A stretch of 64,000 bases of DNA. It comes from Strigamia acuminata. Lineage: Eukaryota. The notes below the pieces were generated by a model, which saw only the letters and a program-made list of their open reading frames with translations, did not search any database and was not told the DNA's origin. The position numbers and the translations under genes were made by a program. Numbering within the stretch: the first letter of the stretch is position 1; each line of letters begins with the position of its first letter. The stretch covers positions 7,440,001-7,504,000 of the forward strand of contig OX442314.1 of the NCBI GenBank assembly GCA_949358305.1, read 5' to 3'. Shown here one piece after another: positions 1 through 48,067 of the stretch.

Positions 1-1714
1 TTTGTCATTAGCAATTGCTAGGGATACAGATACTGTACTTTGATCATCTCCTTTGCCTATTTCAGTGGAAGGTGTAAAGGTTATTTGATGACATGGACGT
101 CGACAGAGACAAGCAGTAATGGGATTTGTGGTTTGAATCAACTGCTTGGCAGCATTGTAATGCATCTGTATGTCCTTTGAACATTTACAAAGCGGCAAAT
201 CGATCTTCATGAAGGGAAATCTTTGATGGAACATTTGTAATCAGTATATTTTTATGTAGAACTACATCTTTCTCTCTACTAAGCGGGCTGCAACAATTGG
301 ACCAGAATGTCATACACTCATAAGGAGCGGAAATGATGTAGGGTACGGAAATGACGTAGGGAACAGAAATTACGCAGAAAACGAAAATCACGTAGAAAAG
401 AGAAACACCGTAGGGAACGAACGGAAATCAAGTAGGAAACGAACGGAAATCAAGTAGGAAACGAACTGAAATCAAGTAGGAAACGAACTGAAATCAAGTA
501 GGAAACGAACGCAAATCAAGTAGGAAACGAACAGAAATGACGTAGGACATGGTAACTCAAACAAACAATGTGATTTATCATGGGCAGCCACGCTGTCTGT
601 TGACTGTTTTGATTTCTTACCTGCATGTTAGCTTCTTAAATTTCTTCAATAGACACCTCAGATAACATTCTCTGTATTCGTTTTGACCGTAGCATTCATT
701 TATAGGTGAATTCAGAAAAATGAACTAAAATTTTTCAATAAAAAATAAGGTAATGCATAGGAATTTTCGTTCTTTGATAAAATTTTACTTTGTTATAACT
801 CAAATAAACTTTTGTTGTTCCACCGCCATATTGTTGTCCAACCCCGAAAAATTTTCCAAAATCGTAGAAATGAAGACCAAGCTAAGGGCGAAGGAAAGAA
901 AAGTAGACTAGAATTATTTTTGCAATTTATTAAAATTACAAAGTATATCGGAGCAGGGCATATGTCATCATAATTTGTTTCTATTTTAGCTGTCACGACT
1001 TTTCCAACAAATGATTCGCTAGATGCCTTAGCTGTATATCATTATATCAATAAATAATAAAGTGCATTGAACTTGATGGTGGTAAATTTTGATTATGCTT
1101 ACGAAATTGAATTGATGAGCATATACCAACATGATTGATCATTTCTGTCAGAACAAATGTTTTGTTTGAATAAGAATATCCCTATACAAAATAAAAAGAT
1201 TTAAATAATTTTTTTTTAACCTATTTAAAATTACTTTATTCCATCTTTTTACTTTTATTTTTACGCTCACTACTTCTTTCGTCAAATTACTCGCTTCCCA
1301 AAGTTCCTCTAGACTGTAAGTTGGGTTTCCCATCAGTGTATTTACCATGTTCACGCATTCGTAACGTGATGGTTGGGATTTTGAGTTAGTTTTATTCCAA
1401 AGTCTCGACATTTCTTTTGTATTGCTACTATATATCAACAAATTTGGTAGAACGACCTCTTCTGACCTACTCGTTACATCAACAGCCGTAGGATAATTTA
1501 AGTAATGCATTATCCTATCGTAAATCTGATAAGTGAGCATGCATGTGCAAAATGAGAATAAGAGCAGCCAAAAGGTGTTTCGCTTTGTCCAATATTTTCT
1601 ACTGTTAATGAAATCATCCAAACCAACTAAGTTGCATCGAAGTTTATTTGCATCATCCTTCAACAATCGATGAATTGCAGGACGTAGTCTCCTCACCAAA
1701 TTATTATTCCGCAT
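1..1714 (-). CDS. Tandem-domain DEG/ENaC gene, copy 1 (exons 1-6; runs off the left edge of the window)
   Basis: TM1 (FWLLLFSFCTCMLTYQI..Y..YPT..V..LPNL), a G-x-C exon and a Cys-rich exon (C..C.LRC..KKLTC/R) joined by GT-AG introns. ORF translations are identical to the copy at offset +11630. Confidence 0.85.
320..548. repeat. Intronic 18-22 bp minisatellite (aacggaaatcaagtagg-like); copy at ~11950-12178
   Basis: Visible tandem units inside the phase-2 intron of the ENaC gene. Confidence 0.8.
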
Positions 1715-1768
1715 TGTATCTTATTTAAATCCAAGGTTTATTCTGTAATGACAATTGATGATTGATTA

Positions 1769-2016
1769 CCGTATTTTGTCGATTAATTGCCGCGGCACTT
1801 ATTCAAAACTGCCATTTTTGTCGGCATTTACAATTTTGGTTTTTCATTTGTTACATTTGTTTAATGTAACAAACGAAGTCTGAACGTCACAAACGAAGCG
1901 TACGTTTATCGTTCGTGAGGTTAAATACTACTATTCGAGGGCGACTACAATTCAAGGGCGGCTACAGTTTGAGGGCGGCTACAATTCGAGGGCTACTCTG
2001 AATCGGTAAAATACGG
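1769..2016. mobile_element. pogo/Tigger-like MITE (CCGTA TIRs, TA flanks); copy at 13399-13646
   Basis: ta|ccgtattttg...taaaatacgg|ta, with subterminal ttcgagggcggctaca repeats. Confidence 0.65.
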
Positions 2017-2491
2017 TATAAACAATTTAATTATTGAATAGAATAAGTGTAGATGTTACGATCTTTTTACCAGCTTTTGGTGGTGTGAAAATTTTGAAAC
2101 ATGGTCGACCCGTTGCAGAACCAGGTGACGCCCATTCGAAAGTCAAATTGACCGACTGGATTAAAAAAACCAGTCAGGCCGAAAACGATATCGTGACATC
2201 GGTCGGATTAGACCGAATTCGTTATAAGTTTATATCGAAGGACTTACGACCGCGTACGATATATAAAAATTGCTCGAACAAGTCTACGAGGATGAAAATC
2301 ATGTCACTGTCAACGGAAGTCATCACAAAAGGATTATCATCCAAAGACGAAATTCAAACTATTCGCGCTTGTAAGCTTATTTTATTATACTTACCTTGTA
2401 TTTATTTTATCCCCAGACATTATTAACCACTTTATTTCAGAGACAAAGTCTGTTTACAGCATCTCAACAGTAAATTAACCCGGATCACTGC

Positions 2492-3484
2492 ATACTCAAA
2501 CCCACTCTAAGCGTGGCCTAACTCTCATTGGCTGCGCCTTATTACTCCTAACTACAGACCGTGCACTACTGCAAAGAAAAATAGTTTTGTTTATTTTTAA
2601 TTGTTTTGAGTATTTTAATTATTAGAATCATGTATTTTTTTTATGTTATAAAAAATGTTTATTTCATTTACAAGATAAAGTTTTATATTGTTTTTCTTTC
2701 AACAAGCATCCTTGATTAGTTTTTTGGTTGCTTTGTCAGGAAAGCAAACAATTTTCTAACTGTGACCGTTTGGCCATCCTACGTGGCCTATGTCACTCCG
2801 CACACCGCCTAAGGGCCCCAAGCCGTCCCCCTCATGGGAATGGACCAGCCTAGCAGGGGAGGAGGTGAGCTGAGTGGTGTGGTGAGAGAGAGACGTTTCC
2901 GAGGGTGAAGACGTGCTAGGATGAGCTGCCACGGTCCTAACTACAGCAGAGACAACTGCTGACTCTGCTGCTCAGTCACGCTCAGTAGCAGGATGAGAAT
3001 GTTTGTCCGATGTGACCGACCACGTCACCCATGGGGCTCACTCCCTGTGTGTGACGGGTCGGTTACCGGTGTAGCGTGCCTACAGCCGCACAGTGGGATA
3101 GGTCCCTCCCGTGTAGTAAATCTCCATATTGGGCAGGTGAGACCATATCCAGTCACATCACAATAAGTAGTGCATGATACCCAGTTTAAGCGGTACTGTG
3201 CATGGCCAAGAGGCAGCTGCGTGGGCTGTTACTCGCTGTGCAAATGTTGTGCCCACCGAGGTAGTGGCCGAATGGTAGATCTGGCCCCTCCAACTTTACC
3301 TGTGGACGAAGACGCTGCCCAGGATCCAGGACATATTGTGCCCAGTACGGCGGACAATTACAATGTCTGTACGTCTAATAAAGTTCTGGTGTTTTGGCCT
3401 ACTTTTTGTATCACAATTCAATACACAAGTGAAATGGCTTGGCCAATGGGAGTTAGGCTACTCTTGGAGTGGGTTTGGGTGTAT
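2492..3484. mobile_element. Non-autonomous TIR element with a nested LTR-like repeat; copy at ~14122-15114
   Basis: Imperfect ~40-bp TIRs (tactcaaacccactctaagcgtggcctaactctcattggc versus ggccaatgggagttaggctactcttggagtgggtttgggtgta). Subterminal sequence resembles the 17271-17688 element. Confidence 0.55.
2761..3156. mobile_element. Solo-LTR-like dispersed repeat (TGTGAC...GTCACA); related inverted copy at ~58369-58750
   Basis: Terminal 6-bp inverted repeat. The segments gtgtgacgggtcggttaccggtgtagcgtgcc and gaccatatccagtcaca match the reverse complement of 58369-58570. No TSD found. Confidence 0.45.
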
Positions 3485-3783
3485 ATTTGTTTCATACCTG
3501 CTTATAGTTGTGTGGAAAGTTGCCTGCACGTTATTTCATGTCTACCAGTGCTGTGAGTTTACAATTGACTGTTCTTTCATTGTTTACTGTAATTTCTTAT
3601 TATCCATAGTAACTCTTTGTATGATGATTATTGATTTCAATTAACGTGTCTTTTGTGAGTGAAAGAAAGCTTAATTGGATTTTTGCACCATGTATACGGT
3701 AATTATTTACAGTAAACGTTTTGTTAAAAAAGAATTGATCATACAATGTCTACAACTTTGCAAGATTCCTATATCTAGAACCG

Positions 3784-6395
3784 GCTACAAAGTAGGAGTA
3801 GAAGGACTTGCAGTAGACCCTAAAAAAGTCGCTGCAATTACGCAATTTCCGGCTCCTACCAATCTTAAGGAATTACAAAGATTTCTAGGCATGGTGAATT
3901 TCTTTCACCGCCTAATCAAGAATTTGGCCACAGTGGCAGAACCACTAAGGCCTCTCCTGAAGAAAGATGCGGAGTTCAATTGGGAACTGCATCATCAGGC
4001 AGCATTCGACGCAATAAAAGACTTGCTTACGAATGCTGAAACAATGAAGATGCCTGACTTATACATGCCATTCATTGTTCATACTGACGCCAGTAGACAA
4101 GGGTTGGGTGCAGCCCTTACACAAAAGAAAATTGTGGATGGCCAAGAAGTCGAAATGCCATGCGTGTATGCAAGCAGAAGCTTGCAACCCGCTGAAAAGA
4201 ATTATACTGTGACAGAATTGGAATGTCTCGCAGTAGTATGGGGATTGCGCAAATTTCGCCCATATTTAGAGTACAATACATTCACTGTACAAACGGATCA
4301 CCAAGCACTTAAGTGGTTGATGTCGTTATCTGACCCGTCGGGCAGATTAGCTCGTTGGCAAATGGAGCTGATGGCGTATTCGTTCGAAATACAGTACGTC
4401 AAAGGTCCGCTAAATGTAATAGCAGACGCATTGTCACGTGCACCTGTCAGCGCACCTGACGAACCAGAAGACGATGGCGATAATGATGATTTATTATCAT
4501 ATTGTCCATCTCCTTGCCGAAGTTGGCAAATGGGAAAATTGAACGAATTACCCAAGTCGATAATAATCAATAAAGATGATCAAGCATTAATTAATTTTTG
4601 TATTAATATGCATGATCCGTCGGGAACCCCTGACGTCGAATTAAGAGCCATGATGGCTAAAAAATTCGAGCTGCCAACAACAAATGTTTTAATTAAAGCA
4701 TTTGCAGCTAAAATTGCTAAACAATTGGAATGTGATCCTCCAACGAGAGATGACATTATTGCAGCGCAAAAAGCAGACAAATTTTGCCAACATATTCGCA
4801 ATTACTTATTAAATAAGCAATATCCAAGTTACATAGTAACTCGTCTTCAAAGAAGAAATTTTGAAAGACACGCGAGTACTTATCTCATTGAAGAAGATAT
4901 GTTACTCCATTATCATCCTACCTCCACAGATGAATTAGGAGAGGATGGTAGGGCACTTAAAGTTGTCGTGCCAAGAAAATTGATTTATAAAATCATTTGG
5001 TTGATGCACGGACATCCACTGTCCGGCCACCCAGGCATTGCGAGGACGATGTACAGAACTCGAAGAGTTTATACCTGGAAAGGTATGAAACGTGATATTA
5101 CACGTTTTATTCAGCATTGTCAAGGATGTCAGGCCTGTAAGCCGAGATCGAAGACAGAAATAGAAGGCGCTCAGATTGGACCATTTGGACCATTTGACTG
5201 CCTCAGTGTGGATTTGTCTGGTCCCAAACCAAGAACCAGAAAAAACAATACCCACATTTGCGTCATCGTAGATGTCGCTACACATTGGCCCGAATTATTT
5301 CCAATGTGTAATCCAACAGCAATAAAAGTTGCCAACACAATTTATCACTTATCAATGACTTTCGGATTTCCGAGACAAATCATAAGTGATAATGGACCAC
5401 AATTTCGATCACAGGTCTATAAAGAATTTTGCAAAAAATTCTACATGTCGCGAACACCGACATCGATTTATCATCCACAAAGCAATCCTGTGGAGAGAAC
5501 CAATCGAGATATTAAATATTTAGTTTCGATTTATTTAGATATTCACGACCAATGGGATGAGTATCTACGCGAATTTGCATTCAGTTTGAGAACAACTGTA
5601 ACAAGAGGCAGAGATTATTCTCCAGCTTTCTTAAATTTTTTCCGAGAATTAAGAATTCCTTGGGATCCAAGAATTCCGGAGGGAATTTTAGTCATTAACC
5701 CAAAAAATCCGCATTTATATGTTCAGAAATTAGAAGCAATAATTGCAGAGACGTATCAGCATATGATGTCTCACGTCTTAGATTTAAGATGCCGTGTCGA
5801 AGCTGAAAAATCAGATAAGAAATTCGACAACTTCAGACAAAATGATTTAGTCTGGCGAGAGTCTCATATTCTCTCAAATGCCGCTAAAGGAATAGCAGCA
5901 GGCATTTCACCAAAAAGGAATGGGCCTTATGTAATTGTCAAAAGGTTACAAGGAGGCGCCTTTCAACTTCGACAGCTGAGTGATAATAAAATTTATCCAG
6001 CTGTTCACGGCACTGAATTAATGCCGTACTTTCCCGTTTTCAACCAAGAAATTTGGCTGGAAGGGGAGGAAGTGGGTCAAAAAACAAAAAATATTGTTAA
6101 CACCTTGGATGATGCTGAATTATCCAAAATTCCTGTCGAAAACACGGAATCGAGTGAAAAATCGAAACTCAAAAATAACGAAGTCGATGAAATAAACAAG
6201 CGACTTGAAAATGTTTCTCTTGATGAAAATCTAGAAAAGGAAATGTTTTTAGAAAAAGAGAAAATTTCAAACAATGAAGAAAATAACTCATCTGACATTG
6301 GAGACGATGCTGATGACAATCTAAACAAGTTGGATTGTACTTCGCGAAAGTCAAAGTACAACTTGAGATCTCGCGTTCCGCGAGCCAAGACATAG
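3784..6395 (+). pseudogene. pol: Gypsy A pol fragment (RT C-terminus, RNase H, integrase)
   Basis: LQRFLGMVNFF; HTDAS..ELECL..TDH (RNase H); HGHPLSGH..CQGC; SVDLSGP..SDNGPQF..VERTN (DDE); GPY motif. Lacks gag, protease and YxDD. Confidence 0.92.
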
Positions 6396-6737
6396 CGTTG
6401 ACTTTCACCTTTTGGGTTTACCCAAAAGATCCGAGAGAGCAATCTCGTGACGTCATTCGTAGTCCACACTCGAATGACAACGTTCACAATGCGTTATAAT
6501 TTGTGACGTCATTCGGTGTCACCGAAACAAGTTCGTTTCTCCAATCAACGAACTTAGCCACTTTTCCGATAAGTTTTGAAGTGGATGCATCGACTCCGAT
6601 ACAGCACGACAGTTTTTCTTGATTCAGCAAACTGTAAGTAATTTTTCTGAAAGAAAAATTCAATAAATATATTTAATATAATTTATTAATTCTTTCTAGC
6701 CGAAAGAATTTCTTTTTCGACGCGAAAAAGAAGGAAA

Positions 6738-9388
6738 ATGGCAGACGACGAAGTCAACCTCCATGCGGACGATGAAATGCCGATGGAAGGAGCCGGTAAC
6801 GACGTCCAATTATCGTTACAAGAGAGGGTAAATTAGTAAAATAATTTTTACCTAGTGTTTCAGTCAGAAAAATTGAGTAATTTCACTTTTCCTGACTTCA
6901 AACACAAGCCGCTAAAAAATAAAAATGGCGGCTATAAACGTCACGTGCTTCAAGCATGTGCGAAGGGAGTTGCCATGACAACCAACATCCCTTAGTGGCT
7001 CACGGCCACAAGCGCTAAGCTTAAAAAATATTTCAAATAAGAAATTATTTGTTTATTTTTAAAATAAACTAATTTATTTATTTATTTTTTTGTCGAATAT
7101 AGATCGAGAGGGATCGAGAGACGCCGTTTGCGCTCCCCGATCATGTGCCGACCCAACACCCGCTGATTTTTCGAGCGGCATTGCCCGAAAAGATTAGGCG
7201 ACTGAAGACGGCAAACAACACGTGGTGGAAGTTGCGCCACGACTTCTCGAAGTCCGCCCTGCAAGGTCTTGGAGCAAAAGGCCGGTTCATCGAGCGCCTT
7301 CACGTCGACGGAGTCGACGAAATCGAGTGGACGCTCGACGAGAGCTTCCCAGGACCACTAGCTGCCGACCTGCTGCACAACCAGTGGCCAGTGACGCCAC
7401 GAGAGCGTCACGAGCGCAGAAGAGCGCTAAAGAGTACCGGAATTAATTACGGTGCTCTCAACCAAGTGAGGAAGAACCTCAAGACGACACAACGCGAAGT
7501 CGTCCAACGGTATCGCAAATCCGTTCGTGACGGGAACCCGCAACTTCCCGCCACACAAACCGAGCTCCACCAGTTGGCGCTCGCAGGGTGCTTCAATGAT
7601 TTTCCGGGATTCTTCCCGTCGAAAGCACTCCGAGCTGCCGCAGTGCAGCTTCGCGTCGACGAAAATCGACAACTGGCTCAAGAACACGAGGCAGAAGAGC
7701 AAGCGCGTTGCGCTCTCCCTTTTTATCGAGAAGATGAAATTCCGGCCCCAGCGGCCATCAATCCTCCGCCGCAAGACGAGGATTTGAGGGTGGGGCAACT
7801 CCCTCCGCCGGTTCCAGTCCGACCGATGTTCCGCGAATCGAGCCGCGATCGGGAAGAACGACAGAGGCGATCGCGCCCATATTCGACTGAAGCACCGCCA
7901 CCACGCCCGCAGTCACGACGAGGACGGACCCCAGAGTCATTCGGCTCGTCGTCCTCGTTAAGCTTCGAATCGGACTCTACATTTAAGTCCGCACGCAGTA
8001 GTCGAACCGCCTCCACGTTCAAAGTGGACAACCCGGCTACTCCATACGCCATGAGACGTGTTGTCGGTGATATCTCTCCCGACTGTAGCGTGCCTGTACC
8101 TGGACACGCTAGCCGCTTGCCCGAGCATGGATATGCTCCTCGCTTGCCGGCTGGAGTTAGCAACCTGCAGCTCCGGCCATTTTTCAGTGAGTCATTCGGA
8201 CCACAATGGACCTGCTACGAGCAGCAACCCATTAGAGCGCAGCAGGAAGTGCTCCAAAAGCTGGACGCATATCAAAGCGCCCAGATCGCCGAGTCGCAGA
8301 AGGACTGGCAGAGACTAGCTGAAAGGCTAGAACTCTCCGACATCAAGACCATTGATGATCCCCGTCTGATGGATTTTCAGCGTCAGCTAATTCCGGGGAT
8401 GACTAGGGTGTTGTACCCTGGTGTTCTTCCTTCGCCAGGACAGGCGTTGGCGGCCATTACATACTTATGGACCGCTCCGATGGGCCTGTCGGAGAAGAAA
8501 ATCGAGCTGTGGTATTATATCCGGCTCGACCCGCCTACGATCTTAGCCGAGCTAATTAAGCAAGTCGTAGCAAACGGCGAGACCGAGGAAGAGGCCGCCG
8601 TTCGGTTGCGAACCGAGTGGTCCTTTGCGAAGGCCACGGCGCAAATGACCGGAAGAACACCGCTTCCAGTTACAAGCGCCACAGCAGCCGCGTCACTAGC
8701 TGCTTTCCAGTCGGCCCAAGAAGGCGCTGGATGTTCGTTTTGGCAGGAGAACGCCGGAAGTTCTCAAACTCCAGCCGGAGTTCAACGGGCAGTCGAACCC
8801 CGTAGGCTCCCCGGAGTTGGTCGAGCGCAGGGACGAGGCGTCACACCCTCGTCAACCTCCGCACCCGCGTTGGTTTTCTTGGGCTCGCCGAGCCATTTCG
8901 ACGATGCCGCGACGGAAGACTCACGTCCACCGCCACCGCCGCCATCAGCCAAGCCGGAGAAGACGGTTAAGCCGCTGAAGAAAGAGTCGGCATACAAGAC
9001 TCTGATGCGCCTGTATCCGCACTTCTATTTGACGCCGGATACGCGAACACTGCTTAGCAACAATCACAAGTTGTCGAGGCAGGTGTTTATGTGGCTCGAA
9101 GACCACATTCGGGTGTTAAGCCCACCATCAGTGCTCCACGACCGACTCCTGAGAGCACGATTGGCGCCGGAGGATCCGATAGAGTTTGCGGCGCTAGGAT
9201 TTTTCAACCGAGCGAACTCGGCGAGAATCATTCAGGTTTGGCTTCATGTCAACCCTGGAATGGTCTCCGGACCAAACGCAGGTCGCGACCTGTGTACGGT
9301 TAACGAGCGGTCCAATCCGAGGGACGACGCCACGGACATGATGCGCCCATTGACGCCTGAGCGAACTCAGAGCATGGACGAATCATAA
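6738..9388 (+). CDS. Gypsy A ORF3, predicted spliced (6738-6827 + 7103-9388), ~791 aa, unknown function, not env-like
   Basis: aaaATGg start, then 30 codons (MADDEVNLHADD..LQER), donor AGG|gtaaat and acceptor aatatag|ATC in phase 0 with the 747-aa ORF. Upstream UTR intron gtaagt 6634 to tttctag 6699. Confidence 0.75.
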
Positions 9389-9440
9389 ATTGGTTCGTTC
9401 ATTTTCTCTCCATGTAAGATTCGTCTTAAATGGGGGGATG

Positions 9441-10403
9441 TGTGGTGATCTCAATGTATTTCACCAACTTAGAAGATAAAATTAATTGTCTTCTAATTAA
9501 TTTGACTGTGGCACACGCCAAGTCAGATCATGTGACCGAGGGGAGAAATCCTCTCTAGGCACATATCACCCCAGGTTGTCCGGGGTGAAGACGGTTATTA
9601 ACCGTTATGGTGCAATATGGTGTAATAACCACTAGTTGCACCCATTTGAGCTAAGTGCGCAGGTTTTCTGCGCAACATAGAAGCGTGCCGGGCTCGTGTC
9701 TTAGCTCAAATCGGGACTCTTGAAAAAATACACAAACCACAAACATCACTGCTTTTCTGCTCCTGACAAAAAGTATTGATAGTGGACCGTGTATCCCAAG
9801 TTTCACCAGCTTGCTTTGTAAAACGTACAAAGTCAGCTATCCTGCTTGAATTAGCCAAAGCTAATTCCAGCAATCGAATCGAGAAGTAGAAGTTTCCCGA
9901 AGTGACGTGAACCATCGCCGTCGCAGCAGCGCGAACTGTTGCCACCGCCATCGAACGCCAGTCGGACGCCCGTGACCGTGAACCACCGCCAGCGAGCCGT
10001 CGTACGAGTTACGGAAGAAACCCACGAGAACCATCGTCTTCGACCATCGTTCGTGAGTTTACAGAACGAAGACAATTTGCCTTCGCCTAACAACAGTGTG
10101 TTGTTTAAGCGCCATTTTAGCGCTTTGTAGCTTGCAACAGTCGTTGCAAGCCCTTCCATTGTTCCCGCTCATTTATTTTCGCGACTTGTCGCATCTTGTG
10201 CTATTTCTAATCATCTTAATAATATATTGTAATTTATCGAATAAATATTGTGTGATTTTTATTACCATAATAAACTGTCTTTTCATTTCCGTAAACTTAA
10301 CCCTAGACAAGTTTCGGCCGCGATATAAGTCTTGTTAAGCATTCACCTGCGGTTTCAGGCTTATTAATTAGTAATAAGTCTGATATTAACCCGGATCGCA
10401 GCA
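9441..10403 (+). repeat. Gypsy A 3' LTR (~963 bp)
   Basis: Follows the PPT; imperfect terminal IR TGTGGTGATC...GATCGCAGCA; aataaa near 10240/10270. The right boundary is supported by related LTR ends at ~2492 and ~16887, not by a partner LTR. Confidence 0.7.
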
Positions 10404-10912: not shown

Positions 10913-13344
10913 CTGTGTCAACTCGTGAACAATTACCAAAAGGAAGTGGAATAGGATGCTTCGATATATTTAATTTAATTTTATATCCATATAACGCCTA
11001 CAAAAACAATAATTTTCATTGATTGGTTTGTTTTGGGAATATAACATACTACTAGTACAGACATACCTCATTATCAATATCAATTGTGTCATGAATATTG
11101 AGTGTTTCCCAGATTTCGACAAGTGGAAATTCGTGATTGAACAATTGCCAGGGCGATATCTCATTGCAGGTGTTGTTAGTGTGTTTCAGTAATTGTAATC
11201 TGGTTTCGTCCATGGCATCATTTTGATTTTCACCACAGATCGTAAAGGACTGATATTCGGTGTAGCGACGTTGAACTATGCTAACCATTGTTGTTACTGG
11301 TTCATCAATGTAGTAGTTGATACGAATTTGCAACCAATATAAAGTGAATCCCGCAGTCACAAATACTAGCGCAAACTTAAACCTTTCTAAGACTCCATTT
11401 GTTATGGTTTTCTCTTTGCTTGCAATGGCTTTCTTCTTGCATGTCTCGTACAGGGGACGAATCTTATCGACGGATTTTTTTTGGTAAATATTTGTTGCAA
11501 CATAATATAAATACCAAATGATATCAGGTAATGAGATTACGGAGAGACCTAGGAACAGGCCCAGATTTCCTCCTAAATCTGACAGAAGAGCAATTGCGTC
11601 GTACGTGTATCGTTCTTCATACACGCTAATTTTGTCATTAGCAATTGCTAGGGATACAGATACTGTACTTTGATCATCTCCTTTGCCTATTTCAGTGGAA
11701 GGTGTAAAGGTTATTTGATGACATGGACGTCGACAGAGACAAGCAGTAATGGGATTTGTGGTTTGAATCAACTGCTTGGCAGCATTGTAATGCATCTGTA
11801 TGTCCTTTGAACATTTACAAAGCGGCAAATCGATCTTCATGAAGGGAAATCTTTGATGGAACATTTGTAATCAGTATATTTTTATGTAGAACTACATCTT
11901 TCTCTCTACTAAGCGGGCTGCAACAATTGGACCAGAATGTCATACACTCATAAGGAGCGGAAATGATGTAGGGTACGGAAATGACGTAGGGAACAGAAAT
12001 TACGCAGAAAACGAAAATCACGTAGAAAAGAGAAACACCGTAGGGAACGAACGGAAATCAAGTAGGAAACGAACGGAAATCAAGTAGGAAACGAACTGAA
12101 ATCAAGTAGGAAACGAACTGAAATCAAGTAGGAAACGAACGCAAATCAAGTAGGAAACGAACAGAAATGACGTAGGACATGGTAACTCAAACAAACAATG
12201 TGATTTATCATGGGCAGCCACGCTGTCTGTTGACTGTTTTGATTTCTTACCTGCATGTTAGCTTCTTAAATTTCTTCAATAGACACCTCAGATAACATTC
12301 TCTGTATTCGTTTTGACCGTAGCATTCATTTATAGGTGAATTCAGAAAAATGAACTAAAATTTTTCAATAAAAAATAAGGTAATGCATAGGAATTTTCGT
12401 TCTTTGATAAAATTTTACTTTGTTATAACTCAAATAAACTTTTGTTGTTCCACCGCCATATTGTTGTCCAACCCCGAAAAATTTTCCAAAATCGTAGAAA
12501 TGAAGACCAAGCTAAGGGCGAAGGAAAGAAAAGTAGACTAGAATTATTTTTGCAATTTATTAAAATTACAAAGTATATCGGAGCAGGGCATATGTCATCA
12601 TAATTTGTTTCTATTTTAGCTGTCACGACTTTTCCAACAAATGATTCGCTAGATGCCTTAGCTGTATATCATTATATCAATAAATAATAAAGTGCATTGA
12701 ACTTGATGGTGGTAAATTTTGATTATGCTTACGAAATTGAATTGATGAGCATATACCAACATGATTGATCATTTCTGTCAGAACAAATGTTTTGTTTGAA
12801 TAAGAATATCCCTATACAAAATAAAAAGATTTAAATAATTTTTTTTTAACCTATTTAAAATTACTTTATTCCATCTTTTTACTTTTATTTTTACGCTCAC
12901 TACTTCTTTCGTCAAATTACTCGCTTCCCAAAGTTCCTCTAGACTGTAAGTTGGGTTTCCCATCAGTGTATTTACCATGTTCACGCATTCGTAACGTGAT
13001 GGTTGGGATTTTGAGTTAGTTTTATTCCAAAGTCTCGACATTTCTTTTGTATTGCTACTATATATCAACAAATTTGGTAGAACGACCTCTTCTGACCTAC
13101 TCGTTACATCAACAGCCGTAGGATAATTTAAGTAATGCATTATCCTATCGTAAATCTGATAAGTGAGCATGCATGTGCAAAATGAGAATAAGAGCAGCCA
13201 AAAGGTGTTTCGCTTTGTCCAATATTTTCTACTGTTAATGAAATCATCCAAACCAACTAAGTTGCATCGAAGTTTATTTGCATCATCCTTCAACAATCGA
13301 TGAATTGCAGGACGTAGTCTCCTCACCAAATTATTATTCCGCAT
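10913..13344 (-). pseudogene. Tandem-domain DEG/ENaC gene, copy 2 (exons 1-7 open; exons 8-11 not present in this duplication unit)
   Basis: TM2 LLSDLGGNLGLFLGLSVIS is followed in the same exon by a second TM1 (FKFALVFVTAGFTLYWL..YY.DEPV..FTIC). The last visible exon ends PFGNCSRVDT|gtaatt. Downstream lies Gypsy A, then the upstream region of copy 1. Confidence 0.8.
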
Positions 13345-15476
13345 TGTATCTTATTTAAATCCAAGGTTTATTCTGTAATGACAATTGATGATTGATTACC
13401 GTATTTTGTCGATTAATTGCCGCGGCACTTATTCAAAACTGCCATTTTTGTCGGCATTTACAATTTTGGTTTTTCATTTGTTACATTTGTTTAATGTAAC
13501 AAACGAAGTCTGAACGTCACAAACGAAGCGTACGTTTATCGTTCGTGAGGTTAAATACTACTATTCGAGGGCGACTACAATTCAAGGGCGGCTACAGTTT
13601 GAGGGCGGCTACAATTCGAGGGCTACTCTGAATCGGTAAAATACGGTATAAACAATTTAATTATTGAATAGAATAAGTGTAGATGTTACGATCTTTTTAC
13701 CAGCTTTTGGTGGTGTGAAAATTTTGAAACATGGTCGACCCGTTGCAGAACCAGGTGACGCCCATTCGAAAGTCAAATTGACCGACTGGATTAAAAAAAC
13801 CAGTCAGGCCGAAAACGATATCGTGACATCGGTCGGATTAGACCGAATTCGTTATAAGTTTATATCGAAGGACTTACGACCGCGTACGATATATAAAAAT
13901 TGCTCGAACAAGTCTACGAGGATGAAAATCATGTCACTGTCAACGGAAGTCATCACAAAAGGATTATCATCCAAAGACGAAATTCAAACTATTCGCGCTT
14001 GTAAGCTTATTTTATTATACTTACCTTGTATTTATTTTATCCCCAGACATTATTAACCACTTTATTTCAGAGACAAAGTCTGTTTACAGCATCTCAACAG
14101 TAAATTAACCCGGATCACTGCATACTCAAACCCACTCTAAGCGTGGCCTAACTCTCATTGGCTGCGCCTTATTACTCCTAACTACAGACCGTGCACTACT
14201 GCAAAGAAAAATAGTTTTGTTTATTTTTAATTGTTTTGAGTATTTTAATTATTAGAATCATGTATTTTTTTTATGTTATAAAAAATGTTTATTTCATTTA
14301 CAAGATAAAGTTTTATATTGTTTTTCTTTCAACAAGCATCCTTGATTAGTTTTTTGGTTGCTTTGTCAGGAAAGCAAACAATTTTCTAACTGTGACCGTT
14401 TGGCCATCCTACGTGGCCTATGTCACTCCGCACACCGCCTAAGGGCCCCAAGCCGTCCCCCTCATGGGAATGGACCAGCCTAGCAGGGGAGGAGGTGAGC
14501 TGAGTGGTGTGGTGAGAGAGAGACGTTTCCGAGGGTGAAGACGTGCTAGGATGAGCTGCCACGGTCCTAACTACAGCAGAGACAACTGCTGACTCTGCTG
14601 CTCAGTCACGCTCAGTAGCAGGATGAGAATGTTTGTCCGATGTGACCGACCACGTCACCCATGGGGCTCACTCCCTGTGTGTGACGGGTCGGTTACCGGT
14701 GTAGCGTGCCTACAGCCGCACAGTGGGATAGGTCCCTCCCGTGTAGTAAATCTCCATATTGGGCAGGTAAGACCATATCCAGTCACATCACAATAGGTAG
14801 TGCATGATACCCAGTTTAAGCGGTACTGTGCATGGCCAAGAGGCAGCTGCGTAGGCTGTTACTCGCTGTGCAAATGTTGTGCCTACCGAGGTAGTGGCCG
14901 AGTGGTAGATCTGGCCCCTCCAATTTTACCTGTGGACGAAGACGCTGCCCAGGACCCAGGACATATTGTGCCCAGTACGGTGGACAATTACAATGTCTGT
15001 ACGTCTAATAAAGTTCTGGTGTTTTGGCCGACTTTTTGTATCACAATTCAATACACAAGTGAAATGGCTTGGCAAATGGGAGTTAGGCTACTCTTGGAGT
15101 GGGTTTGGGTGTATATTTGTTTCATACCTGCTTATAGTTGTGTGGAAAGTTGCCTGCACGTTATTTCATGTCTACCAGTGCTGTGAGTTTACAATTGACT
15201 GTTCTTTCATTGTTTACTGTAATTTCTTATTATCCATAGTAACTCTTTGTATGATGATTATTGATTTCAATTAACGTGTCTTTTGTGAGTGAAAGAAAGC
15301 TTAATTGGATTTTTGCACCATGTATACGGTAATTATTTACAGTAAACGTTTTGTTAAAAAAGAATTGATCATACAATGTCTACAACTTTGCAAGATTCCT
15401 ATATCTAGAACCGCCTATTTCTAGCACGCAAAAGCTACAGTAATTGGACGAAGAGGAAAATGGAATTATTAATTAC

Positions 15477-23243: not shown

Positions 23244-26200
23244 TTATTTCTTCTTTTGGAACCACATTGAAAAACTCTTATTCTTATACCAAGTAAAAGT
23301 GTTTAAAATGCAAATATAGAAAGACAGCAAAGACATTCCTAAACCTAATCCTATGATGCTACCGACATCGCTTAGCAATTGAGATATCGGATATGCCTGT
23401 TGCTCTTCAATACTCTCTAAGAAAGTATCAGAGAATTCAATATGAATTAATGTAAAAGGAAAATCCAATATTCTTTGCTTATTGCCATGCAAAACAAATT
23501 TCTGAAAAGTATTTTCACAAGGCAGTCTACATTTGCATTGTTTTTGATTTGAGTCAAAATTATTTAAATACATTAAATGAGCGGTAGTAATTTCTTGTGT
23601 TGTGTTACAAACTGGCAAATCTGCTCTCCAGAAATAAGGTAATCTGAAACATTTACAAACAATTGTAGTACATTGTAGGCTGCATAGCCCGGACATAGCA
23701 CCATCCGGACAGCTGTGTGGTCCGGACAGTTTGGAGGGCCTGATTTGGTCCCGCCCAATACCCAGCAATATTAAATCTCCTCTCCCATCCGGACATTCCC
23801 TAGACCGGACAAGTTTCTGGGTCCTGTCCTATGTCAGGGCTACGCAGCCTACACTGTATTTAACTTAACTGAAATGCATAAGAATTTTTTGAACGACAGG
23901 TGCATATCTATGTGTTGCTAACAGGACAAAATCATAATTGAGATGTGTAGGAAGTGAAGTTTCTGGATTAGCATACCTGCATTTAACGGTTTGAAACAGA
24001 TTGTTTTGGATGCAAGCATTTTTACACTTGAGATAAGCACTTTTGTGTTGCTCACATGGATTTTGCTTTGTATTTCTTCGTATAGTCTGTTTTATAAAAT
24101 CCAAATAAGTTAGAATGAAAGCGTGTAAGTATAGTTTGTTTAATTTATTACCTTAAGTGCTCGAAGTGTTACTATGTTCCACCAATCATACTTTAAAGTC
24201 ATAGGTGCTAAGATGTTAACTTCTTCATGTGGATTATTTAAGAAAAACTAAATACCGTATTATTATTATTATTTCATAGTAATGAATATTTATCCATAAT
24301 TGACAAAATGTTCTTTGACCAATCTTTGTATTTAATTACTGCATTGGAGTGTTGAATGCAACAAATAATAAATAAATAGTACCTTCAAATCCTGGTCACA
24401 TGGTTTGTAGGGAAATTCATTATGTAATGTAATATAAACGTAAGAATTTAGGTCCTTTGATTTTTCTGCAAAACATTGCAAAGGTCAGGATAAAATCTTC
24501 AGATGCATGAGATACAGTAGAAAGAATTTAGTTTGGGATTTCAAAACATGGTCTTAAAAATTAATGGTGTCAATTTATCACAATTCTTCAAAATGGCCAA
24601 CGATCACAAAGCTGCTACACAGCTTGCGGGATTAAAAGTTCTTACATAGCCCGGTAAAAATCAGAATAATTGATTACAGCATAAATTATTATATGCATAG
24701 TTGTCATGAACCGCATTCCGCGCTCTTTTAAATCCATTGTTTTGTACATTACACGTAATCCTATTAGCTCCTAATTGTTTAACATCTTGTGTTCTGTTTG
24801 CCTATGTTAAAATAAACCTAATTCCTTAATGATTTACCTGAATTCCTCCATTGATTGATGTTTCGTGTTGAGTTTATCCCTTGGACTGTTCTGGTTCAAT
24901 TTATTAATGTTAGTTTTAAGAGTTTATGTTTATATAACGTGTAAGCCCATGAGCTTAATGAGAGCTTTAATTAGCCATTGGCCATTTTGGCAACCTTTCT
25001 TCCTGTGTTAATTCACAATACGCTTCCGTGCAGTTTAAATTACTCATGGTGTGCTCTCAATAGTCACTCCACGTGTTTGTTCATATTTTATATTTTAGAA
25101 ACCTCTTCTTTTTGTTGATCTGTTCTATTTAATGTTTAATGCCGTTGATATGTGCCTAAGGATCGGAATTAAGCCCATTTGCCATTGTGTCTTTTTCTGT
25201 ATCTTTTGTGCACGGAGTTAAAGCGCGATTGCTCGATTTGGCCATCTCCCCATAAGAGATCCTAACCAGTTTGGCGCGGCATTGGTTTCTACGGTAATCT
25301 GGTCGTTGATGACAGCCATAACGGCACGTAACCTCAACTGGACTGTGGATACGCGCTGGGTTGGTACAAAACATATTTCCACTTGAGCCGAGTAAGGCAT
25401 ATGCCGACTTATTGAACAGTAAAAATATTTTTTGTTGAAAAAATCGAATTGTGCGCCCACTGATGCCGCCCTAGAAATATGTGCACCCACAGATGCCGCC
25501 TCTGGAAATATGCCACCTGAGGCAACCGCCTCACCGCCTCACACCTCGCACCGGCCCTGCAATTATTCTTGCTTTTTATAATTCCAAAGAACCCATGCTT
25601 AATTTGTGAATGATCGAGCGAGGGGATAGCTCGCCGCCACACTTCAGGCGGATTATCACAAAATAAGCCTTCGTTCAAACAAGGCCCTCCTAATTTTGTA
25701 CCCGGCATGTCTTTCAAACGTGTTTACCCTTTCTTATAAATTTAATAAAAAAGCACATTATAATTACCTATGTTAATTCGTGAACAATTACCAAAAGGAA
25801 GTGGAATAGGATGCATTGATATATTTAATTTTTTTTTATATCCATAAAACATCTACAAAAAGAATAATTTTCATTTCTGCGTTTCTTTTTGGAATAAAAC
25901 ATACTACTAGTACGGACATACCTCATTATCAATATCAATTGCGTTAAGAACATTGAGTGTTTCCCAGATTTCTACAAGTGACAAGTCGTTATTGAACAAT
26001 TGCCAAGGCGATATCTCACTGCAGGTTTTGTTAGTGTGGTTCAGTAAATATGATCTGGCTTCGTCCATATCATCATTTTGGTGTTCAGCACAGAGGGTGA
26101 CTGACGGAAATTTGGTATGACGACGTTGAACTATTTTAACCATTAATGTTACCGGTTCATCAATGTAGTAGTTGATACGAATTTGCAGCCAATATAAAGT

Positions 26201-28661
26201 GAATCCCGCAGTCACAAATACAAGCACAAACTTAAACCTTTCTAAGACTCCATTTGTTATGGTTTTCTCTTCGCTTGCAATGACTTTCTTCTTGCATATC
26301 TCGTACAGAGGACGAATCTTTTCGACAGATGTTTTTCGATGAATGTTTGTTGCAACATAATATAAATACCAAGTGAGTTCAGGTAACGAAATTAATGCTA
26401 GGCCGAGAAACAGGCCAAGATTGCCTCCTAAATCTGACAGTAGAGCAATAAAGTCATAGGTGTATCGCTCTTCAAATATGCTAATTTTGTCATTAGTAAT
26501 TGCTAGAGATACTGATACAGTTTTTTTATCATCTGCTAGGCCTATTTCAGTGGAAGGTGTAAAGGTTATTTGATGACATGGTCGTCGACAGAGACAAACA
26601 TTAATGGGATTTGTGGTTTGAATCAACTGCATTGCAGCAAAATAAAGAGCATCTATGTCCTTCGAACATTTGCAAAGTGGTAAATCGATCTTCATGAAGG
26701 GAAATCTTTAATGAAAGATTTGTATTTATTATTTTTTTTACGTCTTCTCTGCACTAACTTGTAAGTGGGAGCGAAAATGACGTAGAAAACGGAAATAACG
26801 TAAAAAACGTAAATGGCGTAAAAAACGGAAATGACATAGAAAACGGAAATGGCGTAGAAAACGGAAATGACGTAGAAAACGGAAATGACGTTGAAAACGG
26901 AAATGACGTAGAAAACGGAAATGACGTAGAGAACGGAAATGACGTAGAGAACGGAAATGACTTTGGGAACGGAAATGACTTTGGGAACGGAAATGATGTA
27001 GGGAACGGAAATGGTGTAGGGAACGGAAATGATGTAGGGAACGGAAATGATGTAGGGAACGGAAATCATGTAGCAAACGTACATGATGTAGGGAATAAGG
27101 AGCAGTTCATTTTTCTGCCGCCGGCAGCTGGAGCAGTCTGCTTTTACTGGGTATAACAGAAAGTTTACATGTGACTAACACTTAGATTTTTAGTGAACTT
27201 AAAGCAAATACAGGATATTAAACGCCGGGGCATTTATTAATTTTTCCAACCGACCCTCCCATCTCCATGGTCGATTCTATTCAGGGCAGCGTGCTGTGCA
27301 ATAAACGCCCAGCGTTTAAATGAGTCTCGGCATCTGTTTAAACCCGGCGTTTATTCGAGGCAGTATAGTATGATATTATTTAAAGTCACAAATTTTATTT
27401 GGAATCACAAAAATGCTCTAGTCTCATTTAAACTTTCTGTTGTCCCCCAAGAAAAGTAGACTGATCCATCTGCAGTATGACTGCATGTGAAGATTTTTTT
27501 GGCCATAGGTGTACATTTGGCACATTAGTGACCTTGCCCCTTTGCAAATTTTTTCATCTTATACCTGCATGTTAGCTTCTTCATAAATTTTTTTAATAGA
27601 CACTTTCGATAGCATTCTCTGTATTCATCTTGACCCGAACATTTATTTATTGGTGAATTCAGAAAAATGAACTAAAATTATTGAATAAAATAAGGAGATC
27701 ATAATAATTTTTGTTCAAGAAAAAATTTTTACTTTGTTATAAGTTAAATAAACTTTTGTTGTTCCACCGAGATTTTGTGATCCCACGTGGAGGTTTTTTC
27801 CAAAATCATAGAAATAAAGATGAACCTACAGGCAAAGAAAAGAAAAGTAGCCGACAATCATTTTTGCAATTTAATAAAATTACACTGTAAGGTGCTGCGG
27901 GGCACACGTAATCATCACTACTTCCTATTTTGACTGTTACTTCTTGTCCAACAAATGATTCGCTAGATGCCTTAGCTAAATATCAATAAATAATAAAGTG
28001 CATTGAAGTTGATAATGGAAAGTATTCAATTATACTTACGAAAATTAATTGATGAGCATATTCCCAAATGATTGCTCATTTCTGTCAGAACAAATGTTTT
28101 GTTTGAATTAGAATATCTCTATGTAAAATAAAGAGATTTATATAATTTTTTTAACTCATTAAAAATCACTTTATTCCATCTATTTACATTTATCTTTACG
28201 CCCACTACTTCTTTCGTCAAATTACTCGCTTCCCAAATTTCTTCTAGATTGTAAGTTGGGATTTCTATCAGTGAAGTCACCATGCTCATGCAGCTGGTTG
28301 AATGTTCATCAGTTTGATTTCTCCAAAGTTTTACCATTTCTTTCGTATTGCCACTACATATCATCAAATTTGGTAGAACAACCTCTTCCGATCTACTTGT
28401 TACATCAACAGCCGTAGGATAACTTAAGTAATGCATTATCCTGTCATTAGTCTGAGAAGTGAGCATGCACATGCAAAATGAGAACAAAAGAAGCCAAAAC
28501 AGGCGCCGGTGGCTCCCACGATGATTGGTATTGATAAAATCATCCAAGCCAATTACGTTACATCTAAGTTTATTTTCATCGTCCTTCAGCAATCGCTGAA
28601 TCGCAGGACGTAACTTTCTTAATCTTTGGCTGCTTCTTCTAATGGAATAGTTATTCTGCAT
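23244..28661 (-). CDS. Intact tandem two-subunit DEG/ENaC (pickpocket/ASIC-like) channel, 11 exons, ~796 aa
   Basis: Hand-spliced exons 28661-28200, 28118-28040, 27975-27884, 27825-27733, 27671-27565, 26705-25922, 25852-25768, 24465-24383, 24247-24152, 24086-23977 and 23643-23244. All introns are GT-AG and phase-compatible with no internal stops. Two TM1s, two G-x-C motifs, two Cys-rich thumbs (CxCxxPC) and two TM2s (GGNLGLFLGLA; GSIIGLGLGMS). The exon-1 donor could be 6 nt earlier. Confidence 0.9.
23671..23856. mobile_element. MITE in the last ENaC intron
   Basis: ta|cattgtaggctgcatagcccggacatag...ctatgtcagggctacgcagcctacactg|ta. Confidence 0.75.
26772..27095. repeat. Intronic 18-bp minisatellite (aacggaaatgacgtagaa)n
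   Basis: About 17 tandem units; they generate the spurious YVISV/HFRSL ORFs. Confidence 0.9.
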
Positions 28662-37402: not shown

Positions 37403-38855
37403 AGGTTGCAAGCTAAAAGTGAACTTAGGTAAAATTTTGAATTTTGACATTTTTGTTGTAATTTTTCTTTACCAAGAAAATTATGGCTGAGTTGTATTTT
37501 TTCTAACCAGAAAATTATGACTAAATGTCCGCGTTGTAAATTTTTCTTAAAAAAGAAATTTATAACCGTTTTGTTCGTGTTGTGATTTTCTTTAACGAGA
37601 AAATTACGATTATTGATTTGTTTGTTGTATTTTCTCTCGAAAAAGAAAAAATATAATTACAAATTTCACAGTGTTGTTAATATTTTAATCGAAATATTGA
37701 TTGAACATTGTTTCCCGAGTCTAGTTGCATTTTCCTCACAAGAATGTGTAACAAGTAGACTACCGTATGTTATTTATTATTTCGCGAGAAATATAAATAA
37801 ATGTGCCAGACGTTTGTTGGGTCAATCCTTTTGAATAAAAAGTTTTGATTCTCAACAAACAAACAGAAGTTTCTACAACTCGAAGAATTTACGATGCTGT
37901 CCATTGTTTAAGTTATTTCTAGCAAAAATGCTTAAACTTTAACTTTTTGTCCGAAAAGTTAACGACACTTGGATGGTAGTCTGAAAAGGTCATATTTTCT
38001 CACCAAAAATGTGACTAATGGTAGTATTTTGTGATTATTTCCCGAAAGGAAATAAAAACAATTTTCTCTTTACCAAGAGACTGGAGATTGTCAAGCAGCT
38101 GTGGATAATCGGCGATTTTGACTTGTCTTAAAAAACAGGTTAATCTTGCTGACAAGAATAGCAAAGTTTAAATTCTCGAAAATAGAATTTGGACCAAAAC
38201 TCAGTGGGGGGCATATCCAAAAAAGGAGATGCCTTTTTGGGTGATGAATGAGTGACACACGTCAAATGTGTCATTCTTTAACTCATCCAATCCCGCTGAA
38301 CGGATTAACCCAAAAAATCCATTTTTGGGAAGTGTGAAGAACTACTTGCATTCTTGCATCCACACTGACTGGACGTCTCTTGACCACTATTTTGGACCGT
38401 GACCACCTTGTTCGTTTGGACCATTTTGCATCCGAAAAAGCCGTAAAGTTAAGTGTAATTTTGTTAAAACATTGTAGTTTAAAGCGCACCTTCCTAAGCG
38501 CTAGTTTAATATAAAAAGTGTATTTCAATTTTGTAGTTTAAGTGTGTTTTGCCCACACCAAGTTTAAAGAATCAGTTGTACTATTCTTTCTCTAGTTTTA
38601 ATTTAGGCGTGACTGTTTCTCCGCGCTAGTTGTTGTATTAAAATCCTTCGTACTCCAATCTATTTTTAGGGCGTTATTTTCTTGTTGTTTTTCGTGTACC
38701 CCACAGTACACGTTTTAACACCAAACCTATCGCCAATTTTTGTTGTTGTTCGATTTTGTCGGTTACGTACTAAACGGTACGTAATCTCACACCGAATCTA
38801 TCGCCAATTTTTCAACTTTTCACTTTGTGTTTTCATATTTTTGAACAAAAATATC

Positions 38856-47800: not shown

Positions 47801-48067
47801 GAATGCCCGAAATGGCTAAATAAGAATAAAGCAGATTCCGCAAATAAACGTCCGGCGAGCTCACAAGCTACGCCCGATGATGTAAAACGGCCTAGACCTA
47901 ACTGGGTTACGACCGAACTTCTGGACAAGAAACTAGGCGATTTACAATCAACATTGCAGTCGTCTCTTCAAAAGTCCCTTCACAGCTCAGTTACCGATCT
48001 ACTTACAAAATTCTTGAAAGCTCCTACAAGCTCGACAGAAAAAGCAGAGGAGTCAAAAAACTGTTAA
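38856..48067 (+). CDS. gag: Gypsy B gag, interrupted near codon 34 by the Copia insertion (38856-38956 + 45877-48067)
   Basis: Removing the Copia and one TSD restores MTHHRN..TPITEES-TQYDADE in frame. Capsid-like IPAFEG..FL..LLGHAQTWF..WEIFEDAFL; zinc knuckle CFYCYETGHFKREC. Confidence 0.9.
39425..39438 (+). promoter_or_regulatory. Primer-binding site, initiator tRNA-Met
   Basis: TGGTAGCAGAGGAT is complementary to the 3' end of metazoan tRNAi-Met. Confidence 0.88.
40544..45388 (+). CDS. Copia gag-pol polyprotein (gag, zinc knuckle, PR, IN, MBD, RT, RNase H), 1614 aa from the first ATG
   Basis: KLNGTNYSTW; CYNCGGTNHFAREC; WYVDTGATDH; WHSRMGH..CDAC; HLDVWGP..TDNGGEF..AERTN; YRARLVAQG; FYVDD; YTDAS..KHIDVK..ADLMTK. 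Confidence 0.97.
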   Translation: MASWDRRDDYKDVEKLNGTNYSTWSVQIQLLLQSYGVWGHVTGKEKPLPATASAKEVREFDKREEKARSTICLACGKAQQVVAVAHEGAKEVWEALKAAYQPTTRARKARLRREFLMLKLHEQEEMMVFLARVDRKALELKDVKIDISDEFLAFQYLDLLPHQYETVKQTVYHWGDPEFTSKAVKERLLGEYNRLYEQTDEFGVSLGTIENTGAYFTKGRWQRGRGGNAPSSPRVCYNCGGTNHFARECSSPPKQQQGATRGNPTGQFSRGSQRGKSRGKSQQTANVTQMDIFSNSPVSYFSAAICQEQPPVVVSLLSHANYDSQWYVDTGATDHFSFNKTWFSDFKPLTGYSVQQGDGKSKIEGIGNVTLVSINGQQTRELTLKNVYYAPNFKKNLISLGRTDEAGATTIVKNGKMFIYDVTIDDPSITAIRTSDRMYKVNCRINAKNSVNTVALSAQQSATVASSPPLAGEEIVKSLLTHVDFRTALTQNLSKSGKPVPARKGQAKTANTAPAIVANNASMEISNQQSSVLTDTQSSLVASKGNKPKDAKILRTIVQNNLTNGNGVVNGKNASIKPDKPQTMDIWHSRMGHLNAKGIALLNKSTEVFGLKLSNTELSSCDACSMAKSTRASFPPIATISTKGILEIVHLDVWGPSPVRSIGGAYYYLVMVDDFSRLMWIVIMKKKSEVLGHFKKWLTEIERTTSRKVKSIKTDNGGEFVSKQWDEYAGSIGLKCMRTNAYSPEMNSIAERTNRTILGGIRALMIENSLPSSLWAELAVSVVYLKNRFPHAGLGGRTPYNVFFNKKLSLRHVKCIGALTYVHIPSQTRAGKLQERAWAGALVGYASSTRGYRIWDPNKNQVFLSKHVKILEQNFWYEKVKNPQSGPSPATDDSDLSGEESCNDSDTDSVYSEPIPEEEVKVVEKLVERPIQARPPGGPDYVDAMQYIIGDIHGLNFDEIGGAKGDDRDFFNIYPDDDEGEVEEEVEDPDASPQLSPQSSPTPPRRNPPRKGKDTGERTASTSDLLPLDMTLWQRRQTVRQSGATAGKVDVWYITPKHEKLRSRVEVVRWCKAEGYEYKSELFNFKDVTIGFAGCCSVEPDTYEEAVKGASKPDWENAMEDEINIFKEREVYVEVDKDQVKDKTLLGSKWIYKLKRDHTGTIRRYRARLVAQGFKQKPGIDFTEVFSPVVNFVLVMMFFCVLVVLRGWRDVHLDIKAAYLYGDLDEVQYIHIPKGYRTTENQHKCWELRKSLYGLHQSGRMWYQRLHDQLIEIGFEPVLGLNCVYSLGTDAILIFYVDDIVLFSKDNIAEECVLDWIQQSFEIVNLGPVTLLLGIEFCRDGENIFIHQRAYIAKLCKQYGIDSCHRVRVPGTPGTMIQKVQTGERVNSSFPYRSLVGSLLFIASRTRPDILFSVIVLSQYNETHSTRHVNMLLQILRYLGNTPNFSINLGNCQSENLTVYTDASFALDQDKRRSFGGHIIYLGGVPISWNCHKQTITALSIMESEFLAVVDGVKEIIWLERIFGADVMMDGLNREIPCVYADSMPAIQYAKNRIENRANKHIDVKLHFVRDWFEKGVFRIRHIPGTLNVADLMTKWLSRAKLDALCEHIFVAAK
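43613..43803 (+). other. Methyl-CpG-binding domain between the Copia integrase and RT
   Basis: WQRRQTVRQSGATAGKVDVWYITPKHEKLRSRVEVVRW..LFNF aligns by eye to the MBD2/3 consensus GWKxEEVIRKSGLSAGKSDVYYxSPSGKKFRSKPQLARY..FDF. Confidence 0.9.

Follow-up and report, generated by a model that had tools for sequence, protein, structure and literature searches.

Within a 64,000-nt stretch of the genome of Strigamia acuminata, referred to here as the window, a Ty3/Gypsy retrotransposon (Gypsy A) carries behind pol a long third reading frame that, judging from its sequence, is probably a real, spliced gene. The reading that best accommodates the evidence, to which a probability of about 0.38 is assigned, is that this frame represents an accessory gene belonging to the element itself, whose soluble orphan protein would assist the making and export of unspliced genomic RNA, by analogy with the role of CERV in the retrotransposon Cer1. 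A sister element in the same window, Gypsy B, appears to repeat the arrangement with an unrelated protein. The coordinates of the relevant features are collected in Table 1.

Table 1. Coordinates of the features of Gypsy A, Gypsy B and their surroundings in the window.
Feature	Position	Strand	Remarks
Host sequence with a portion of an amiloride-sensitive channel gene on the minus strand	1-3783		directly abuts what is left of pol
Gypsy A pol remnant: RNase H, integrase zinc finger and core, acidic tail	3784-6395	+	stop-free; TAG stop ends at 6395
Two copies of an 18-nt unit	6447-6520	+	each with TGACGTCA overlapping TCATTC
CCAATC box	6541-6546	+	after the CRE-like units; motif picked post hoc, without a chance test
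Predicted leader intron of Gypsy A, 66 nt	6634-6699	+	sequence signals; GTAAGT...TTTCTAG, GC 14%
Predicted exon with ATG at 6738 (AAAATGG)	6700-6827	+	GC 52% in the coding part
Predicted phase-0 intron of Gypsy A, 275 nt	6828-7102	+	AT-rich ends with GC 26% and 10%, core GC 49%
X-box-like palindrome	6969-6982	+	inside the GC-rich core of intron 2
Third-frame main exon (P0001), 761 codons	7103-9388	+	phase 0, straight after the acceptor TAG
Polypurine tract	9428-9438	+	direct reading
Probable 3′ LTR of Gypsy A	9439-10309	+	inferred; TGT...ACA, AATAAA at 10240 and 10269
Gypsy B: gag, pol and post-pol gene	35682-57865	+	LTRs 99.94% identical; post-pol gene at 52321-55429
Copia element bearing a methyl-CpG-binding domain (E 2.7e-10)	38957-45871		nested in Gypsy B
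Predicted leader intron of Gypsy B, 67 nt	52489-52555	+	
Weaker intron-like stretch of Gypsy B, 73 nt	52695-52767	+	GTAAGT; failed our acceptor rule
Predicted ATG exon of Gypsy B, 7 nt	52849-52855	+	
Predicted phase-1 intron of Gypsy B, 637 nt	ends 53492	+	
Long third frame of Gypsy B, about 645 codons	53493-55429	+	Cys cluster

Only the 3′ half of Gypsy A is present in the window. The element is 5′-truncated, its pol begins just before RNase H, and gag, protease, reverse transcriptase and the 5′ LTR are absent from the 64,000 nt. The remnant of pol is recognised by the Pfam families RT_RNaseH (5.7e-36), Integrase_H2C2 (6.4e-18) and rve (2.5e-08), and its translation (P0002), with RNase H at residues 103-235 and integrase at 432-601, follows the Ty3/Gypsy order. 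Among named proteins, those of Strigamia maritima are the closest relatives of this pol, at 38% across the integrase region and 72% within a short stretch, and a metagenome scan returned 40 distant loci with best-segment identities of 25-41%. The host DNA to which the remnant is joined is a duplicate of 11631-15413, with 10 mismatches in 3783 nt and none in 1-3138. A duplicate ending inside pol could stem from a recent tandem duplication that broke within pol, from a deletion, or from duplication in the assembly, and the complete Gypsy A may be situated immediately to the left of the window. At the opposite end of the element, the 3′ LTR is a probable one, as the window contains no second LTR. 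The minus strand also carries tandem amiloride-sensitive channel genes at 11052-11870 and 25907-26707; each of the two frames gives two separate family matches, and the end of the channel seems to run into the start of another repeat.

The 761-codon frame occupies the interval between pol and the polypurine tract, and its end is 39 nt from the purine tract. As a chance control, the longest frame in all six frames of 1000 base shuffles had a median of 147 and a maximum of 333 codons, while the remaining five frames of the real interval contain 18-29 stops each. A mirror gene on the minus strand is thereby ruled out, since the three minus frames are among those with 18-29 stops and the open frame is on the strand of pol. 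The first Met of the frame is codon 242, and the probability of 241 codons staying open by chance is approximately 2.5e-4; the Met-less beginning implies that an upstream start exon is needed, and the predicted 90-nt coding exon provides one in phase 0. The acceptor TAG coincides with the in-frame stop that precedes the frame, at a point where local GC moves from approximately 10% to approximately 70%. The GC content at third codon positions (GC3) is 0.60 in the third frame, compared with 0.34 in the pol of Gypsy A. No terminal repeats flank the gene, and for lack of them a nested DNA transposon was dismissed as its source; the gag of a tandem next element was likewise dismissed as the identity of the frame, because no pol lies downstream. 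The intact state of the frame by itself shows little, because the pol remnant is intact as well.

The start exon predicted upstream contributes 90 nt of coding sequence, or 30 codons, nine of which encode Asp or Glu, and ends in AGG followed by a GTAAAT donor. The strength of these signals was gauged with 2000 dinucleotide shuffles of 6396-7060 and a simple donor/acceptor rule of our own making. An in-phase ATG exon of at least 29 codons arose in 76 of the 2000 shuffles, an intron-like pair of 55-85 nt in 203, and the two jointly in 14. The 66-nt intron alone is weak evidence, given the 203 shuffles and the 47 rule-passing short intron pairs found in the window with both strands counted. Outside the elements, the window offers 504 acceptor-phase pairs, and 51 of them possess such an ATG exon, some of which are perhaps true host exons. 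More telling than the 66-nt intron alone is the resemblance to candidate host introns, which come from channel genes in the window and occupy three positions common to two diverged paralogues, a similar open frame being left in both. These candidates measure 61-83 nt, with a GC content of 13-25%, AT-rich TAG or CAG ends, and the donors GTAAGT, GTAAAT, GTAAGC or GTAAAA; the 66-nt stretch and the ends of the 275-nt stretch resemble them. All coordinates given in the initial annotation for the pol stop, the TGACGTCA motifs, both introns, the 30-codon exon and the 761-codon frame were reproduced, and its proposal of an element-borne, probably spliced gene is upheld by the in-phase splice signals, the host-like character of the predicted introns and the same layout in Gypsy B.

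The GC-rich core of the second predicted intron (6901-7020) contains, besides the palindrome listed in Table 1, two further words, and the three are what we take to be X-box-like, E-box-like and YY1-like. The X-box-like pattern has 2 matches in the window against 0.32 expected, and 3 of 100 shuffles reach 2. The core is possibly an enhancer, for example for germ-cell expression. A cassette exon at this place was considered and rejected, as the ATG frames there extend over just 6-20 codons and no good donor was seen.

Behind the pol stop, TGACGTCA occurs at 6448 and 6504; we take this word to be CRE-like and the overlapping TCATTC to be initiator-like. Two CRE-like motifs had been reported in the initial annotation, and both are indeed present, but they belong to one duplicated unit, the 18-nt copies being 89% identical and 56 nt apart, and are not independent sites. 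Two such motifs appeared in 0 of 2000 shuffles of the region, and one in 19. In the window as a whole, TGACGTCA has 6 occurrences, arranged as three pairs, against 0.99 expected, and one of the pairs is located in the two LTRs of Gypsy B. After its own pol stop, Gypsy B has CCAATC at 52348 beside TGAGTCA at 52337. The duplicated unit is a plausible internal promoter of the third gene, and such a promoter is slightly favoured over the LTR promoter as the source of its RNA.

Comparison with Gypsy B provides a second instance of the arrangement. The pol of this element has the full PR-RT-RH-IN order, and in an integrase tree of 35 rows, from which two rows were dropped for short matches and in which Gypsy A was flagged as a long branch, Gypsy A, Gypsy B, one Strigamia protein and one other protein are grouped with support of 100/98. 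Gypsy B appears to repeat the layout of Gypsy A independently, with leader introns, a tiny ATG exon, an in-phase intron and a long exon, which taken alone is modest evidence. The first Met of its third frame lies 86 codons in (P approximately 0.03 for the open stretch), and an ATG-exon solution exists in phase 1 alone, which is the phase required by the long frame. The micro-exon alone is weak evidence: in a control, an ATG exon with at least two codons accompanies 143 of the 504 acceptor-phase pairs from host DNA. GC3 is 0.56 in the third frame of Gypsy B versus 0.44 in its pol.

The third proteins of the two elements are not significantly alike over their full length, as 63 of 300 shuffles score as high, and a similarity over 47 columns (E 0.077) was dismissed on the same count. 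Sub-regions score better (8-9 of 1000 shuffles), but they were chosen post hoc. Against the 40 metagenome loci, neither protein gave a match below E 0.38. The frames downstream of pol were checked at 20 of these loci and Pfam-scanned at five, of which one was env-like, one resembled a zinc-knuckle gag and three had no passing family. The search with the Gypsy B protein against proteins of 30-353 aa was blank. A CxxC/CxxxxCxxC cluster in this protein weakly matches the Anti-TRAP zinc finger (E 0.00094, below the cut-off), and a short internal repeat lies near the N-terminus.

Several further observations concern the region of Gypsy B. Its leader is AT-rich and about 1.5 kb long, and a donor-like site (37429) with an 82-nt intron-like stretch (37429-37510) directly follows the primer-binding site. 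The AT-rich 720 nt that separate the third frame from the purine tract (55430-56150) include a strong acceptor-like site at 55673 and may hold another exon or a 3′ intron. The nested Copia element has 466-nt LTRs and a 5-nt target duplication and matches the CopiaMBD family presented in PMC6673714, in keeping with a centipede host; a 293-codon frame over its leader (39621-40502) has no Pfam match. A repeat of 4678 nt with 99.98% identity connects 43706-48383 and 59323-64000, the latter beginning right after a 200-N gap (59123-59322), and could reflect either a second copy or overlapping assembly pieces.

The two coding exons of Gypsy A would yield a protein of approximately 791 residues. Its highest 19-residue hydropathy is 0.88 and its N-terminus is acidic, which bears out the earlier statement that a signal peptide and a membrane anchor are lacking, as far as hydropathy can tell. 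It contains 6 scattered Cys residues without a cluster, one RRR, and no classical Lys-rich nuclear signal by a pattern of our own. Pfam recognised 0 families in the whole protein or in its blocks, including viral fusion proteins and DNA-binding, chromatin and nuclease domains, and the same library served as a positive control by recognising the env-like ORF3 of one metagenome locus (L007) at 1.1e-35. With no hydrophobic segment and no family match, the predicted protein is not env, in agreement with the initial annotation, and the match to env that could have contradicted it was not found in Pfam.

Searches for relatives gave 0 matches with phmmer among 1.84 billion representatives, in whose parent collection named Strigamia proteins are present, 0 in a word search among proteins of 418-1332 aa, 0 among PDB sequences and 0 among viral contigs; an Atlas search with the whole protein and with residues 360-545 was blank. 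Structure prediction, proposed earlier as a check, was uninformative: two AlphaFold models made without an alignment reached pLDDT values of 41.6 and 44.5, and Foldseek with the first of them returned nothing at E<=0.001 from PDB and BFVD. These low-confidence models place helical blocks at about residues 38-203, 368-540 and 629-731 with R/S/P-rich coil between them, consistent with the alternation of disordered tracts and folded-looking blocks that had been described from the sequence. The blank homology and fold searches do not establish a new fold.

Orphan accessory frames behind pol are already known in kind, and the closest parallel is CERV of Cer1, a Ty3/Gypsy element of C. elegans, which is described in the consulted portion of PMC10309623 as a spliced orphan ORF that comes after pol and precedes the 3′ LTR and whose nuclear product is needed for export of unspliced genomic RNA. 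The third frame of Gypsy A likewise is an orphan ORF that follows pol and precedes the 3′ LTR in an animal Gypsy element. However, the first three exons of CERV share the gag frame, whereas the predicted start codon and both predicted introns of the Gypsy A gene lie behind pol; the gag of Gypsy A being absent from the window, a first exon derived from gag is still conceivable. The 517 aa of CERV include a ring-forming domain, in which the Cys loop lies, and a G-protein-like domain; neither the loop nor the G-protein-like domain was detected in the Gypsy A protein and its low-confidence models. The function of CERV is proven according to the same portion of that paper, while a comparable role in Gypsy A is proposed by analogy alone; the gene may work like CERV, although it is not classifiable as CERV.

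Other systems share some of these traits. In foamy viruses, Tas and Bet are expressed mainly from an internal promoter and with splicing (PMC13220597), and their genes resemble that of Gypsy A in their accessory position near the 3′ LTR. Nevertheless, a foamy virus is a retrovirus with env, no sequence links it to Gypsy A, and the internal promoter of Gypsy A is deduced from motifs alone. The LTR elements of bdelloid rotifers carry family-specific, unrelated, non-env ORF3s, which the available portion of PMC5408684 treats as separate transcription units and in which the word "intron" occurs 0 times; their products can be recognised as enzymes or as membrane proteins (GDSL, DEDDy, TM, env), unlike the orphan protein of Gypsy A. 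Non-env third ORFs are also described, in the parts seen, from rotifers (PMC5718144) and from plants and fungi (PMC7264820), and giant planarian elements have accessory ORFs (PMC6431247). The premise of the initial annotation that the usual third ORF is env is thus weaker than stated, given the non-env ORF3s published in PMC10309623 and PMC5408684. Boty brtn, Grande and Retand have orphan additional ORFs in the same position but antisense, whereas the Gypsy A frame is sense and its product soluble; the sense ORFs in that comparison are env-like with membrane segments, of which the Gypsy A protein has none. The env of errantiviruses follows pol as a third ORF (PMC13524379) and its splicing is also treated in PMC10309623, in both cases in the portions consulted, but the Gypsy A protein has no signal peptide, membrane anchor or fusion-protein match. 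Centipedes and myriapods are unmentioned in the main text of PMC13524379 as far as it was available. Searches of the open literature listed no account of a centipede or other arthropod Gypsy element with a self-contained, intron-bearing sense gene behind pol. What sets Gypsy A apart is that its start codon and its two introns are all predicted to lie behind pol, where an internal promoter may be located as well.

A mechanism consistent with these features can be outlined. A short RNA, probably starting behind pol at the duplicated unit with its CRE-like and initiator-like words, would lose the leader intron and the 275-nt intron and be translated into the protein of approximately 791 residues, which would act in the nucleus on the full-length RNA of the element. 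The initial annotation had assumed that introns are normally lost during retrotransposition; this does not hold for introns within an element, which are normally retained since the packaged RNA is the unspliced one (PMC10309623, in the part consulted). Since the DNA still contains the predicted introns, reverse transcription must draw on RNA whose host-type splice sites have stayed unspliced, and this RNA would have to escape both splicing and nuclear retention, the problem that CERV and Rev solve. A protein rich in Arg, Ser and Pro with modelled helical blocks would fit an export role. Against a CERV-like role, neither the sequence nor the low-confidence models connect the protein with CERV, with Rev or with any protein that binds RNA, and the Cys loop and, by our pattern, a classical Lys-rich nuclear signal are absent. 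The two sister elements have unrelated proteins, which argues against one conserved machine, and cis-acting export routes exist: simple retroviruses export unspliced RNA through a cis element without a protein, according to the part of PMC10309623 consulted. A CERV- or Rev-like role of the protein is held tentatively, at somewhat less than an even chance.

The manner of expression bears on this reading only in part. It is possible, though on balance somewhat unlikely, that the gene, while real, owes its expression to the 5′ LTR in the manner of env or CERV, through a long splice from a leader donor to the acceptor at 6699 or 6627 and without its own promoter, a route compatible with any function of the protein. 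The donor-like site just after the primer-binding site of Gypsy B, the second acceptor-like site at 6627 in Gypsy A, three short ATG frames upstream of 6634 and the description of LTR-element ORF3s as products of spliced messages (PMC5408684, portion available) would all accord with it; yet the near-perfect donor at 6634, situated 66 nt before an acceptor and delimiting an intron of host size, would have no use, and the same applies to the 67-nt pair in Gypsy B. A rather unlikely alternative keeps the same spliced gene but regards its product as an anti-silencing factor, directed at DNA methylation or small RNA, or as a transactivating factor that boosts the LTR, following the logic of the foamy Tas and Bet with their internal promoter and splicing. 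Promoter-like motifs right after pol in both elements and the acidic N-terminal exon are in keeping with it, silent transposons are methylated in Strigamia (PMC6673714, in the part seen), and rapid turnover in a conflict would account for the dissimilar proteins of the sister elements, whereas the protein has no DNA-binding, chromatin or nuclease domain by Pfam, and the motifs in question were chosen post hoc.

Two further explanations deny the protein a regulatory part, and both are improbable. One holds that a gene of the host or of another transposon was captured with its promoter and introns and is carried as cargo by a young element without serving it. The contrast in GC3 with pol and the host-type introns would agree with such an origin, the intact frame says little against it, and in no fewer than two of the metagenome loci, what follows pol as a long frame resembles gag from a next element. 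However, no relative emerged among the 1.84 billion representatives despite the Strigamia proteins in the parent collection, the host channel exons of the window have a GC3 of 0.34-0.38, the gene lacks terminal repeats at its borders and a pol behind it, it has no gag match, and the same slot is occupied in Gypsy B. More improbable still is a structural or transmission factor, such as a second gag-like or particle-associated protein: helical blocks with Pro/Arg-rich linkers resemble a gag-like composition and the position is that of env, but capsid, zinc-knuckle, fusion and membrane features were absent by Pfam, hydropathy and fold search, and a BLASTP comparison with 40 gag and pol proteins stayed blank at E<=0.5. 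The accessory gene with a CERV-like function remains the preferred reading.

LTR elements must move unspliced RNA out of the nucleus and past the silencing of the host, and in the literature searched Cer1 was the only animal retrotransposon for which a dedicated protein had been demonstrated to achieve this. In a broader and at present doubtful view, the centipede-associated Gypsy lineage would be a complex retroelement with a self-contained post-pol slot, provided with its own promoter and host-type introns and filled in each family by unrelated orphan regulators that control RNA export or silencing, an independent arthropod parallel to Rev, Tas and CERV. Two sister elements with one post-pol layout and unrelated proteins would suggest a recurring, fast-changing helper module that domain-based annotation has missed.
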